Shown here: one piece after another, positions 29,701 to 35,700 of the stretch
Layout: every line of letters starts with the position of its first letter
Numbering within the stretch: the first letter of the stretch is position 1
DNA from: Candidatus Omnitrophota bacterium
Lineage (GTDB): Bacteria; Omnitrophota; Omnitrophia; Omnitrophales; Aquincolibacteriaceae
Assembly: GCA_903856085.1 (NCBI GenBank)
Contig: CAIOAT010000037.1
Span: 1,249 to 65,248, forward strand
Direction of reading: 5' to 3'
Length of the DNA: 64,000 nt
Made by a program: the position numbers

Positions 29701-32700
29701 TCCGAAGGTGCGCCGGCCGGATATCACCAAGGCTCAAAAACATCTTTCCTGGACCCCGAAAGTTTTGCTGACGGACGGTTTGATGCACACGATCGAGTAT
29801 TTTAAAGAAGCCCTGAGGACGAAGTAATGCCGTTTTTTCTTTCCGTAGTGATTCCTGCTTACAACGAAGAAGAACGCTTGCCCCAGTCGCTTGCCGCGGT
29901 CCTCGGTTTTTTGAAGAAGCAGTCGTATGGATCAGAGATCATTGTGTCAGATGACGGCAGTCAGGACCGAACCGTCGAGCTTGCCAAGGAGATCTTGAAG
30001 GAATTTCCGCATCAGGTGCTGGTTACCCCGCAGAATCGCGGGAAAGGACATGCGGTCCGACAGGGAGTGCTTGCGGCCAAAGGAGATTATATCCTTTTTA
30101 CCGACGCGGATCTTTCTACGCCTATTGAAGAGGTGTCGAAATTCCTGGCATGTCTTGAAAAAGATCAAGACGTCGTGATCGGCTCGCGGGCGCTTCCGGA
30201 TTCTCAGGTCAAGATCCGCCAGAATTTTTTTCGGGAGACAATGGGGAAGGTTTTTAATCTGATCGCTCAGAGGTTTACGTTCAAAGGCGTTCACGATTCG
30301 CAGTGCGGCTTCAAGTGCTTTCGTCGGGAGGCTGCGCACAAGCTTTTCAGCCTTCAGAAACTCGACGGTTTCAGTTTTGACGTGGAGATCGTTTATCTGG
30401 CCCAGAAACTTGGGTTTCGGCTTCTGGAGCTTCCCGTGATCTGGCGCAATTCCGCTCAAAGTCGCGTCCAAGTTCTTCGCGATCCATTAGTGATGTTTTG
30501 GGATGTTCTCAGGATCCGCAGTATTCACTCCTGATATTCGCAACGGTTGCTTTGGGTGAAACTTTTCGTAGAATAGCGATGTGATTTGATTCTATCGTAT
30601 CGGGAGATGCATTACTTTTATGGAACATGAAAAAACATTGGTGATGGGGAATGTGGCGATGTCGGAGGCCGCGGTCCGGGCCGGCTGTCGTTTCTACGCG
30701 GGATATCCGATCACGCCCCAGAACGAAGTCAGCGAATATTTGGCGAAACGCCTCCCGGAAGCCGGTGGGGTTTTCGTCCAGGCTGAGTCGGAACTTGCCG
30801 CGATCAATATGGTTTTCGGTGCAGCCTCGACAGGAGTGCGAGCCATGACCTCTTCTTCAAGTCCCGGGATCAGTCTCATGCAAGAGGCAATTTCTTATAT
30901 CGCCGCGGCCCAGATTCCTTGTCTTATCGCCAATATCATGCGCGGAGGTCCGGGGCTTGGGAATATCCAGGGCTCTCAGGCGGATTATTTCCAGGCGACG
31001 CGCGGCGGCGGGCATGGAGATTACCGGCTGATCGTGCTGGCCCCCTGGTCCGTTCAGGAAATGTATGATTTTACGATCCGGGCTTTCGAACTCGGCGATC
31101 ATTATCGCAATCCCGTGATGCTTTTGGCGGACGGCATTCTGGGGCAGATGGCCGAATCGATCGAATTTAAAGAACCCGCAAAACTAAAAGCGGTCGCGAA
31201 GGAATGGGCTCTTACGGGTTGCGTGGGCCGGAAACCGAACGTGATCCGGACGCTTTATCTCAAGGAAAAAGATGCTTTGGAAGAAAAGAACATGGAACTT
31301 AAGGCGAAATACGAAAAGATCACTTCCGAGCTTCAGCTTTCCGAGACGCGTTTCGGCGATGACGCCGAGATCGCCGTGATCGCTTATGGAACGCCTGCCC
31401 GGATCGCGCATTGGGCCGTTAAACGGGCTAGGGAAGCCGGCGTTAAAGTCGGACTCTTCCGGCCCATCACGCTTTGGCCTTTCCCGGCAGTGGCTCTCAG
31501 AAGTGTCGCTGCCCGTTGCCGCAAGCTTCTGGTGGTCGAAATGAGTCAGGGGCAAATGATCGAGGATGTGCGCCTTGCGAGAATCCCCGCAACGGTTGTG
31601 GATCCCAAGATTGAATTTTTTGGGCGCGGGGGCGGGTGGTATCCCAAGCCCAAGGAACTTTTGGCGAAGATCATGGAGATTGCAAAGACATGACCCCCGA
31701 AGAAAGAACGATCAGGCCCGGACGGATGCACTATTGTCCTGTTTGCGGCCATACGATTGCCCAGCGCCTGATCGGCGAGGTGATCGATGAGCTGGGGATC
31801 CGTGAACGGACTATCGGAACGGCCCCGGTTGGATGCGCGGTACTTCTCTACGATTATTTTAATTGCGATATCATCGAATGTCCCCACGGAAGGATTCCGG
31901 CGGTGGCCACGGGCATTAAGCGGATGCGGCCAGACAATATCGTGTTTGCCTACGGTGGGGATGGGGATCTTCTTTCGATCGGGCTGGCGGAGACAATCCA
32001 TTGCGCGAACCGCGGCGAAAATATCACACTGATCTTTATTAATAACGCGGTGTACGGAATGACGGGCGGGCAGATGGCCCCGACCACGCTGATCGGACAA
32101 AAGACGATTACGACTCCCGACGGAAGGATGTCGACCGAGACGGGGGCGCCTTTACGGATCTGCGAAATGTTCGCGACCTTGGCCAGTCCTGTTTTCATCG
32201 AACGCGTGGCGGTGCATGACGCGCCTCACATGCAACGGGCGAAACAAGCCATACGCAAGGCCTTTCAAAATCAGATCGACGGAAAGGGTTTTTCCTTTGT
32301 CGAGATTCTTTCCATGTGTCCGACTCATTGGAAAATGGGCGGGAAAGAGGCCTGTCAGTTTGTGGGGAATGAAATGGCTAGCTATTTTTCGATCAAAAAA
32401 TTTAGAGATGTGGACGGATGATGGAAGAAAAAATATTTGTTGCGGGTTTTGGGGGGCAAGGGGTCGTCGTAGCGGGGAATATCCTTGCACATGCCGCCCT
32501 CGAGGAGGGTCGTTATATCCTCGGTATGGTCTCTTACGGCGTGGAGGTAAGGGGGGGTGCCTCTCACAGCTTCGTGATCATTTCCGATCAGGAGATCGAT
32601 TGTCCTATCATTGATGAAGCGACGCTTGGCTTTGCCCTCAGTCAGGCTGCGTATGAAAAGTTTAAGACCAAGACACGTTCCGACGGGATCTTTTTTATCG

Positions 32701-35700
32701 ATTCCTCCCAGATCACGAGCATTGATCGGGCCGGAACCACGGGCCAGTTGATCGAGATTCCCGCGACGCAGATTGCTCGCGAGATCGGCAACGAAAAAGT
32801 GACGAATATGATCATGCTCGGCGCGGCGATCCAGCGAACCGGGATCGTGAAAATGGCCAGCGCCGTCAAAGTCCTCGGGAAAGTGTTTAAGGGGCTTCGC
32901 AAAGATCTGATCTACGTCAACGAAAAAGCCCTCTCCGTCGGTGCTGACCTCATGCGCCAAAAACACTGATCGCTTGTTTTGATCGAAAATCGTTTCGTTT
33001 TTATAACAATCCCGGGTGTTCGAAGCAGAACCCCGGGTGTCTAAAAAAGTTGGGATGACTTTTTTGAATATTCTCGGAATTTCTGCGTTCTATCATGACA
33101 GTGCAGCGTGTCTCATTCGGGACGGGGAGATCGTCGCTGCGGCCCAGGAAGAGCGCTTCACGAGGAAAAAGCATGACTACTCATTTCCGCAGCATGCCAT
33201 TGATTTTTGTCTTAAAAAAGGCGGCGTGAAAGCTTCCGAACTGGATTGTGTCGCATTCTATGATAAACCATTCCTTAAATTCGAACGTATCCTCGAAACT
33301 TATCTCGCGTATGCGCCGCATGGCATCGCGTCATTTCTTCAGGCATTGCCTCTTTGGATCAAACAAAAGCTCTGGATGAAGGATTACATCCAAACCGAAC
33401 TCGGGTTTAAAGGAAAAATTATTTTCCCAGAGCATCACGAGTCGCACGCGGCCTCAGCGTTCTTCCCGTCTCCTTTCCAGGAAGCCGCATTCCTGACTAT
33501 GGACGGCGTGGGAGAATGGGCGACTACAAGTTATGGCGTCGGGAAGGGAAATAAGATCGATATCCTTGCCGAGATCAAATTTCCGCATTCGCTGGGACTT
33601 CTTTATTCCGCGTTCACGTATTATACAGGCTTCAAAGTCAATTCCGGGGAGTACAAGGTCATGGGGCTCGCCCCGTACGGCAAACCGGTCTACAAGGATT
33701 TGATCCTGAAGGAATTGATCGACCTGAAAGAGGACGGTTCCTTCAAGCTTAACATGAAGTATTTTGATTATTGCGCCGGACTTCGCATGACGAATAGTCA
33801 CTTTCACAAGCTTTTCGGTGCGACGCCCCGTAAACCCGAATCCCGTGTCACCCAGCGCGAAATGGACCTCGCCCGTTCGATCCAGGAAGTCACGGAGGAA
33901 GTAATGCTCCGGATTACCCGTCATGTTCACAAAGTGACAGGACAGAAGAATCTGTGTCTAGCCGGAGGTGTGGCGCTTAACTGCGTCGGGAACGGCCGCA
34001 TTCTTCGCGAAGGCCCGTTTGAACATATCTGGATACAACCGGCTTCCGGGGATGCTGGGGGCGCCTTGGGTGCAGCTTATTTCGGCTGGCATCAATATCT
34101 TGAAAAGCCAAGAACTGCCAACGGAAAAATAGATAGCATGCGCGGTTCTTTTCTTGGGCCGGAGTTTTCGGATGTTGAGATCGAAGCCTTCCTGTCTAAA
34201 CACAAAATCCCTTTCGTCCGTCTTGATGATACAGAGCTTCCGGAAAAGATTGCAGATCTGATCGCTCAGGAAAAAGTGATCGGCTGGTTCCAGGGCGCCA
34301 TGGAATTCGGCCCCCGGGCGCTGGGTGGCCGTTCCATTATCGGGGACCCGCGTTCGCCTAAGATGCAGGAACAAATGAACCTGAAGATCAAATTCCGCGA
34401 GAGTTTCCGGCCGTTCGCACCTTCCATTCCTTTCGAGAAAGTCTCGGAATATTTCGAGATGACAGCAGAAAGTCCTTACATGCTCCTCGTCGCGCCGGTC
34501 CAAAAGAAATGGCGCCGTGAAATGTCGGAAAGTGAAAAGAAACTCGAGGGGATTGAGCTTTTGAACGTGAAGCGCTCCGAGATCCCGGCCGTTACTCATG
34601 TCGACTATTCCGCGCGTGTTCAGACCATCTCGGAGGTCCAGAATCCGCGCTTTTACAAGCTTCTCAAGAAATTTGATGAACGGCACGGTTGTCCGGTCGT
34701 GATCAATACTTCGTTCAATGTCCGCGGCGAACCGATCGTTTGCACACCCGAAGACGCCTTCCGGTGTTTCATGCGCACGCATATGGACTATCTGATCCTT
34801 GGAAATTTTCTTTTGACTAAGGCGGAACAGAAGCCACTTGAAAAAGACAGTGAATGGATGAAGGAGTTTGAGCTCGATTAAACCGGGGGAACGGCTAGTG
34901 GGGAACTTCAAACGATGGCGGTGCCCATTTCCCCAAAAGGAATAAGGAATTATGATCATTGATGAAATCAAGAAAATCGAGTCGACCAAGAAAAAGCTAA
35001 GAGAATTCGGTTTCTTGGTCGGGGGAGTTATGTGCGTCCTGGGAATTTTGCTGTGGCGCCGAGGGCGGGGGAGTTTCCCTTATTTTCTCGTACCGGGTAT
35101 CTTTCTCGTCATCACCGGGGCGCTTATCCCGTCGATTTTAAAGCCAATCCAAAAAGCATGGATGACGTTCGCGATCCTGATGGGCTGGGTCATGACGCGC
35201 GTCCTTTTGTCCGTCCTCTTTTATCTTACTCTTACGCCGCTCGGGTTTATCCTGCGTCTTACAGGGAAGGATCTGCTCGACCAGCGACTTGATCCCAAAA
35301 AGAACAGCTATTGGAAGATCCGGTCCCAAACACCGCGTATCCCCAGCGACTACGAAAGGCAGTTCTAATACCGCATGATTTTTTAAATTTTGGGATTTGC
35401 GGGATAGTGCTGTTAACCGCTTAAATTAATGGAGAACAGTATTGAAATGATAAAAAAAATATTCCTTTATGTTTTTACAACCTTTCTCAGTACTTGCTTG
35501 TTGCTCCTTCTGCTCGAAGGGGCTTTTTGTGTTCTCGGTTTTCCCCAAGGTGCTAGCGACTTTATTGAACGCGCCATTTTTCAGCAAAAATTAGAATTCC
35601 GGAAACCGGCGGGTCAATTCAGGATTTTTGTTTTTGGAGAATCCACCGTACACGGCGCCGGTTACGCGCCGACTTCGAGTCCCGTGAAATGGCTTGGCGC

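Follow-up and report, generated by a model that had tools for sequence, protein, structure and literature searches.

Why does a complete operon for a 2-oxoacid:ferredoxin oxidoreductase (OFOR) lie among genes for sugar nucleotides and surface glycans? The question is raised by a stretch of 64,000 nucleotides from a Candidatus Omnitrophota bacterium (assembly GCA_903856085.1, contig CAIOAT010000037.1, positions 1,249 to 65,248), in the following called the window. A first-pass annotation had described the OFOR as embedded in the glycan locus. It favoured a dedicated supply of an acyl-coenzyme A (acyl-CoA) for sugar acylation and listed simple co-location as another option. We arrive at the latter. 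At a probability of roughly 0.8 the three genes form an autonomous operon for a VorB-type OFOR of central metabolism which, in one Omnitrophota subclade, came by chance to lie between a conserved sugar-nucleotide block and a hypervariable glycan region. This is favoured by a promoter-like element, by synteny, and by the occurrence of the same operon in contexts which have nothing to do with glycans. The most interesting point of the locus is a different one, i.e., the clade-wide loss of the delta subunit together with a divergence of gamma.

The operon

The OFOR genes, with the thiamine diphosphate (ThDP) site in beta, are:

30620..31693, + strand: OFOR alpha (domains I and II), 357 aa, VorB-type; Pfam POR_N and PFOR_II, NCBIfam NF005507
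31690..32421, + strand: OFOR beta (domain VI), 243 aa, ThDP/Mg site and a single proximal [4Fe-4S] cluster; Pfam TPP_enzyme_C
32418..32969, + strand: OFOR gamma (domain III, CoA-binding), 183 aa; Pfam POR

The three open reading frames (ORFs) are consecutive on the + strand, exactly as annotated in the first pass, and match their Pfam families with scores far beyond chance. The overlapping stops and starts reported then are 4-nt ATGA overlaps, at 31690-31693 between alpha and beta and at 32418-32421 between beta and gamma; such overlaps at both junctions suggest translational coupling within the operon. The longest beta ORF begins with a GTG at 31636; the start conserved in relatives is the ATG at 31690 (MTPEERT). 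The immediate neighbours, on the same strand and at short distance, are also confirmed by ORF positions and domain matches. An ArnC-like GT2 gene (29827-30534, +) ends 85 nt 5' of alpha, and a carbamoyltransferase gene of the NodU/CmcH type, with a start at 33016 or 33052 and its end at 34881 (+), follows 46-82 nt 3' of gamma. The closest alpha homologues (72-96% identity) are all from metagenome-assembled genomes of Candidatus Omnitrophota, the source organism of the window.

Gene order in relatives

Questions of co-location of this kind can be settled by a comparison of relatives, without experiments. In about 16 related species (alpha identity 74-95%; loci are given by L numbers) the order LptD-Ugd-RmlA-RmlB-RmlD-UXS-GT2-(PMT)-OFOR is largely fixed. 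Exceptions are L003, in which the GT2 is missing, and L009, in which RmlA and RmlB gave no match. Further 5' the conserved block contains two GGDEF genes which are not sugar-related. The genes 3' of gamma differ in almost every genome; the pair of carbamoyltransferase and SxtJ, which follows the OFOR in the window, is present in only two other loci. A fixed block on the 5' side and variable genes on the 3' side place the OFOR at the end of a block that is inherited vertically, beside a recombination-prone glycan region. L003 has UDG, PriA, Def, Fmt, and GAPDH immediately 3' of three sugar-related genes, and its sugar genes overlap UDG and PriA in the same manner; in genomes as compact as these, tight spacing is therefore uninformative. 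The caution is a general one: in compact genomes, genes of a glycan region which share a strand and are separated by short gaps, or overlap, need not cooperate.

A different picture emerges outside this group. In L006 and L023 (72% alpha identity) the OFOR is located between a DUF1318 gene on the 5' side and a MarR gene with an efflux pump on the 3' side, and there are no sugar genes. A 799-aa gene 5' of the OFOR in L006 was considered as an LptD orthologue and rejected, as it is not homologous. With no LptD homologue, the L006 locus represents a different context and not the shared backbone from which the sugar block was deleted. In L089-L091 (66-67%) the order is FabA-like dehydratase, thiolase, DUF362, OFOR, thiolase, ketoreductase, acyl-CoA dehydrogenase, EtfB, and EtfA. 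This acyl-CoA cluster is a typical setting for an enzyme that makes acyl-CoA. Thus, the OFOR is syntenic in relatives which lack the glycan genes, at 72% identity in L006 and at 66-67% in L089-L091. At 61% identity or below, in other phyla, the window's glycan genes are not nearby, except for rmlABD in one order described below, and many loci have NuoF/Hyd-like Fe-S genes 3' of the OFOR. Of the first-pass description, the gene identities, the layout without delta, and the physical embedding stand; the functional link to the glycan is not supported by the relatives.

The L089 sequence (GCA_030636085.1, DAOVXO010000001.1) is labelled 'Nanoarchaeota archaeon'. It carries PlsC acyltransferases of the bacterial type, GpsA, Bcd/EtfAB, and thiolases; its OFOR shares 67% identity with that of the Omnitrophota. 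The bacterial gene content and the OFOR identity indicate mis-binning, mis-classification, or a large bacterial transfer.

Beginning and end of the transcript

Two sequence elements bear on the limits of the operon:

30547..30574, + strand: promoter-like element TTGCTT-N16-TAGAAT (inferred sigma-70-type), ending 45 nt before the alpha ATG
33011..33037, + strand: GC-rich hairpin (CCCGGGTGTTC...GAACCCCGGG) in the gap between gamma and the carbamoyltransferase, predicted folding energy -18.7 kcal/mol

The promoter-like element emerged solely from the cross-species alignment. Of 18 clade loci, 12-13 have it at about -70, irrespective of whether the upstream gene is a GT2, a PMT-family gene, or another. 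In the window the pattern TTG[ACT]TT-N15-18-TA[ACG]AAT matches at 30547-30574 and nowhere else, with 0.2 matches expected. A scan of the window with strict sigma-70 and terminator consensus sequences yielded nothing significant; the element is absent from that listing because its -35 hexamer agrees with TTGACA at only three of six positions. A relaxed sigma-70 pattern finds four intergenic sites on the + strand of the window, each 5' of a gene (1699-1727, 7821-7849, 17182-17209, and 30547-30574). Three of the four share the -10 box TAGAAT, and one is a perfect TTGACA-N16-TATAAT before accD. The other short gaps within the glycan region have no match to the relaxed pattern. Taken together, the four promoter-like sites may provide a preliminary sigma-70 consensus for the lineage, which is uncultivated. 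An Rfam scan returned neither riboswitches nor other regulatory RNAs.

In L088 two minus-strand genes are positioned between the sugar block and the OFOR; hence the operon must start its own transcript there. At the other end, a convergent minus-strand GT2 gene lies 3' of gamma in six relatives (L005, L013, L016, L019, L021, and L022), and canonical terminators follow gamma in L001 and L014. In the window itself an A-run, not a T-run, follows the hairpin at 33011-33037; the terminator scan did not list this hairpin, and it extends over the GTG at 33016 that is the alternative start of the carbamoyltransferase. Conceivable roles are those of a weak or reverse-oriented terminator, which is uncertain, or of an mRNA-stability element. 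On the level of sequence, then, independent transcription of the OFOR is favoured by the promoter-like element and by the convergent genes and terminators of relatives, and disfavoured by two loci and by the 3' end in the window, to which we return below.

An intact redox enzyme

All domains expected of an OFOR are found, I and II in alpha, VI with the ThDP/Mg motif in beta, and III in gamma. The Pfam E-values are 5e-53 for POR_N and 3e-22 for PFOR_II (both alpha), 2e-20 for TPP_enzyme_C (beta), and 3e-32 for POR (gamma). A gamma-type subunit constitutes the CoA-binding domain III (PMC12337175). Alpha passes NCBIfam NF005507 ('VorB' subfamily; PRK07119) with 510.8 bits at a cut-off of 399; this is a subfamily-level model, not an equivalog. 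The equivalogs were all missed: KorA (NF007206) with 258.5 bits against a cut-off of 579, KorB (NF007207) with 109.4 against 364, PorA_Arch with 96.9 against 550, PorB with 68.2 against 405, and the single-chain PFOR model TIGR02176 with 21.3 against 911. The solved structures closest to alpha are 1yd7 (218 bits), 8ys5 (203), and 6n2n (158); the POR 9bt4 reaches just 55.

The catalytic residues are in place. Four cysteines of beta (HYCPVCGH, VGC, and SMCP) and the ThDP/Mg motif GDGD...NN are kept in all aligned relatives, with or without delta. The cysteines align with Cys12b, Cys15b, Cys46b, and the C-terminal Cys of StOFOR, the ligands of the proximal [4Fe-4S] cluster (PMC5020499). Thr32 (in YPITP) and Arg108 of alpha align with Thr256a and Arg344a of StOFOR1, which bind the carboxylate of the 2-oxoacid (PMC5020499). 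Retention of the cysteines, of the CoA-binding gamma, and of Thr and Arg argues against a reuse as a non-redox enzyme of the carboligase type. By its sequence, the window enzyme is an intact redox OFOR with a predicted activity dependent on CoA and ferredoxin.

Two positions of the substrate pocket are informative. Lys49b of StOFOR1 is needed for 2-oxoglutarate; the K49bI mutant loses the activity with 2-oxoglutarate and retains that with pyruvate (PMC5020499). The corresponding residue is Leu52 in the window beta (VGCAVL) and Arg in the 2-oxoglutarate enzymes 8ys5 and 6n2n. Across the collected loci this position is nearly always hydrophobic or aromatic, Thr in one, and Lys or Arg in none. 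The position of Thr349a is Leu113 in the window alpha (RGGPGLG) and Thr in StOFOR, 8ys5, 6n2n, and 1yd7; in the pyruvate-specific DaPFOR it is Leu121. The motif R-x-G-P-G-L-G is present in 80 of 81 loci. Going by the two positions, 2-oxoglutarate is an unlikely substrate, and the aliphatic pocket makes pyruvate, 2-oxobutyrate, or branched-chain 2-oxoacids the likely ones. The pocket resembles DaPFOR at two positions, so pyruvate may be used despite the missed Por/PFOR cut-offs. With 2-oxoisovalerate the hydrophobic pocket is compatible, which is not proof.

How would such an enzyme operate? From what is known of the family, Thr32 (YPITP) and Arg108 of alpha would bind the carboxylate of the 2-oxoacid. 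ThDP, held between alpha and beta, would decarboxylate the substrate, and CoA, bound via gamma, would take over the acyl group. As the two-cluster delta is lost, electrons would pass from the single [4Fe-4S] cluster of beta directly to free ferredoxin. Acyl-CoA and reduced ferredoxin would then enter general fermentative metabolism. In the literature, OFORs of Omnitrophota are treated as fermentative enzymes (PMC8542988, PMC10066038).

Does the OFOR serve the glycan?

Several observations weigh against a co-location by chance. The OFOR adjoins the sugar-nucleotide block in every sampled relative with an alpha identity of at least 74%, and this linkage was kept despite an LptD identity of 56-67% and despite gain and loss of genes on both sides of the operon; selection for it is conceivable. 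The promoter motif is missing from L009 and L010, where the GT2 gene extends as far as alpha, and by this arrangement GT2 and OFOR are likely co-transcribed there. The window has no canonical terminator 3' of gamma; with no clear terminator, read-through into the carbamoyltransferase is possible. Finally, glycan neighbours exist in two of about 57 more distant loci, L045 (6030-12432) and L078 (5800-12400), both of one order, Thermoanaerobaculales, with rmlA-rmlB-rmlD just 5' of the OFOR. By a rough estimate, the chance of a second independent rml-OFOR adjacency is a few percent. The gene order is rmlABD, a ParA/NUBPL-like P-loop gene, delta-alpha-beta-gamma, and a NuoE/NuoF/ferredoxin fusion, and no other glycan genes of the window type are nearby in either locus. 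A recurrent functional link was considered for this adjacency and rejected; since the neighbours are redox genes it was judged incidental.

Among the explanations that assign the OFOR a task in glycan synthesis, a dedicated source of acetyl-, propionyl-, or branched-chain acyl-CoA for O- or N-acylation of the surrounding glycan has most to offer, and we still consider it improbable. The operon is indeed embedded and stands beside Ugd-Rml-UXS-GT2 in about 16 species, the likely co-transcription with GT2 in L009 and L010 would fit, and the island contains candidate genes for the handling of acyl groups, i.e., WcbI (41361-42353), GDSL/SGNH (35429), and GSCFA (40304). Yet the conserved block has no acyltransferase, and WcbI, GSCFA, and GDSL are away from the OFOR in most relatives. 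The OFOR has a promoter-like element of its own, in relatives the operon ends at gamma, and at 66-72% identity the same operon is found in contexts of acyl-CoA metabolism and not of glycans. Further, acetyl-CoA is a metabolite of the general pool for which a dedicated source is not needed. Thus, the acyl-CoA supply proposed in the first pass is unsupported. A broader version, in which the OFOR is kept beside Ugd-Rml-UXS-GT2 because it serves this block with a specific acyl-CoA or with low-potential electrons for a modification of the envelope glycan, appears a little less probable again. If true, it would directly link ferredoxin-dependent oxidation of 2-oxoacids with the decoration of the cell surface. 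That the OFOR supplies redox enzymes in the glycan region, e.g., radical-SAM enzymes, with reduced ferredoxin is very improbable. Genes for B12-binding radical-SAM proteins do lie a few kilobases 3' in L005 and L088, but they are part of the variable region and absent from most loci, there is no radical-SAM domain among the window genes scanned, and reduced ferredoxin is a diffusible carrier of the general pool.

Two more specific schemes are hardly credible. One starts from an LhgO-like gene (56152-57366) of the window, the product of which would convert 2-hydroxyglutarate to 2-oxoglutarate; the OFOR, acting as a KOR, would then yield succinyl-CoA for glycan succinylation. The identity of this gene holds, for with 344.7 bits it passes the cut-off of the NCBIfam L-2-hydroxyglutarate oxidase equivalog (299). 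Alpha is nearer to the KorA-type than to the PorA-type models, and the JGI label of relatives is korA. Against this stand the KorA and KorB cut-offs, both missed by far (258 vs 579 and 109 vs 364), and the pocket, with Leu instead of a basic residue at the Lys49b position, where K49bI abolishes the use of 2-oxoglutarate in StOFOR1 (PMC5020499), and again Leu at the Thr349a position. In the window 23 kb separate LhgO, a gene of the hypervariable part, from the OFOR, and in none of the relatives does it lie within 10 kb of the OFOR. The route is disfavoured, and the speculative succinylation pathway is dropped from consideration. The other scheme has the ThDP enzyme recruited for sugar chemistry, in which, e.g., pyruvate would donate a two-carbon unit to an NDP-4-ketosugar that RmlB or the UXS-like enzyme provides. 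Such two-carbon transfers are carried out by YerE and AviB1/B2 in pathways to branched sugars. The OFOR is positioned directly 3' of RmlB and the UXS/ArnA-like enzyme, both of which make 4-keto intermediates, and in the clade delta was lost and gamma remodelled. However, the four [4Fe-4S] cysteines, the CoA-binding gamma, and the Thr and Arg for the 2-oxoacid are all kept as in standard redox OFOR chemistry. Delta is lost in members without sugar neighbours, too; hence its loss is not tied to the sugar context. The scheme seems exceedingly improbable. This leaves the co-located operon of central metabolism as the preferred reading.

Probable loss of delta and divergence of gamma

The absence of delta noted in the first pass extends to the whole window: in all 64 kb there is no ORF with two CxxCxxCxxxC motifs. 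None was found in the 85-nt gap 5' of alpha, nor near alpha in any locus of the clade. Loci at no more than 61% identity nearly all have delta, as a 2x[4Fe-4S] gene of 70-120 aa directly 5' of alpha. By a locus-level search it is absent from all 29 loci with at least 66% identity, irrespective of glycan neighbours.

At the same boundary the identity of gamma falls stepwise. It amounts to 55-56% in relatives without delta (alpha 66-67%) vs 34-36% in those with delta (alpha 61%); overall it is 55-97% within the delta-less clade vs 30-38% to delta-bearing relatives. In solved OFORs domain V docks between domain III, i.e., gamma, and domain VI, i.e., beta, and in enzymes without domain V this pocket takes external ferredoxin (PMC5020499). 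The sequences likely record a clade-wide switch to a single-cluster alpha-beta-gamma enzyme which reduces free ferredoxin directly; a delta gene at another place in the genome is conceivable. The loss is likely an event within the VorB-type family, independent of the Sulfolobus and Magnetococcus enzymes. A lineage-specific loss of the ferredoxin subunit, in a family which almost always keeps delta, is a modest positive finding. It offers a natural example of an OFOR that changed from an internal wire of three clusters to direct docking of free ferredoxin, and may interest enzymologists who study electron transfer in CO2-fixing and CO2-releasing OFORs.

In L089-L091 a DUF362 protein with an N-terminal zinc-ribbon-like CxxC...CxxC is encoded directly 5' of alpha, the place of delta in other phyla. 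The regions are 8701-10004 in L089, 8869-9996 in L090, and 8762-9892 in L091; L089 also has a 59-aa zinc-ribbon ORF. The DUF362 protein could be a replacement partner for delta or could be unrelated.

Other genes of the window

Sugar and glycan genes begin at about 24.6 kb and continue as far as the window reaches, making up a region of at least 40 kb. On the 5' side of the OFOR they comprise an LptD-like gene, Ugd, RmlA, RmlB, RmlD, a UXS/ArnA-C-terminal-like SDR, and the ArnC-like GT2. On the 3' side the carbamoyltransferase is followed by SxtJ, a GDSL+TPR protein, DUF4254, GT9, an ArnT-like PMT_2, GSCFA, and WcbI, then by an FkbM methyltransferase, GT4, GT2, Gmd, and Fcl. Beyond Fcl are RmlC, a sugar C-methyltransferase, the LhgO-family flavoprotein, an MsbA/PglK-like ABC exporter, a GmhA-like isomerase, and a split transketolase.

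The carbamoyltransferase-SxtJ pair is present in three genomes, at 33016/33052-35368 in the window, 8626-10946 in L009, and 13278-15561 in L018. It recalls SxtI/SxtJ of saxitoxin clusters, an analogy which suggests a module for O-carbamoylation of the glycan. The RmlC-like 3,5-epimerase (50418-50990) is about 22 kb from RmlA/RmlB/RmlD (25985-28803) and beside the sugar C-methyltransferase (50987-52213); from this separation and neighbourhood, plain dTDP-rhamnose may not be all that the conserved RmlABD block supplies. LhgO sits between a glycosyltransferase of the TIGR04372 family (54899-56119) and the MsbA/PglK-like ABC exporter (57387-59255), and its product might oxidize a hydroxyacid or a substituent of the glycerol-phosphate type. 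The GmhA-like sedoheptulose-7-P isomerase is encoded at 59432-60001. The split transketolase, its N-terminal half at 61967-62797 and its C-terminal half at 62794-63717, lies 3' of this isomerase and of two SDR epimerases. As a second ThDP enzyme of the glycan region it may provide sedoheptulose-7-P for heptose, or a branched or extended sugar. GltB and GltD, the large and small subunits of glutamate synthase and consumers of 2-oxoglutarate, are encoded at 8687-14637, 16 kb 5' of the OFOR and with no evident link to it.

Comparison with known systems

The nearest known systems are the VorB-type four-subunit OFORs (delta-alpha-beta-gamma) of Bacillota, Acidobacteriota, Zixibacteria, Ignavibacteria, Planctomycetota, and others. 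They share with the window operon the order alpha-beta-gamma, the ThDP and Fe-S motifs, and the hydrophobic pocket (RxGPGLG, VGCxx[L/F]). They differ by the upstream 2x[4Fe-4S] delta which the window operon lacks. Of the solved structures, the 2-oxoglutarate synthase (KOR) 8ys5 and the alpha subunit of the Pyrococcus furiosus 2-keto acid:ferredoxin oxidoreductase, 1yd7, are closest by sequence (alpha 203-218 bits, beta 94 bits), yet the pocket of 8ys5 has Thr and Arg where the window enzyme has two Leu.

In its predicted electron path the window enzyme resembles StOFOR1/2 of Sulfolobus tokodaii (5b48, 5b46) and the OGOR of Magnetococcus marinus (6n2n), which likewise lack an internal ferredoxin domain and have one proximal [4Fe-4S] cluster. 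In OFORs devoid of domain V, an external ferredoxin docked between domains III and VI presumably takes up the electrons directly (PMC5020499, PMC12337175). In other respects the enzymes are dissimilar. StOFOR1/2 and OGOR consist of two subunits with domain III fused to alpha, whereas the window gamma is a separate polypeptide; similarity to the window alpha is low (93-158 bits); and they use 2-oxoglutarate, with Lys or Arg in place of the Leu that the window enzyme has at the Lys49b position.

For the location of the operon the O-antigen cluster of E. coli and Salmonella is instructive. It is flanked by gnd and galF, genes of central metabolism which border a hypervariable glycan locus and have no part in glycan synthesis. 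The window OFOR differs in being another enzyme in another phylum and in having sugar genes on both sides; like gnd and galF, it would be a central-metabolism enzyme at the edge of a hypervariable surface-glycan region.

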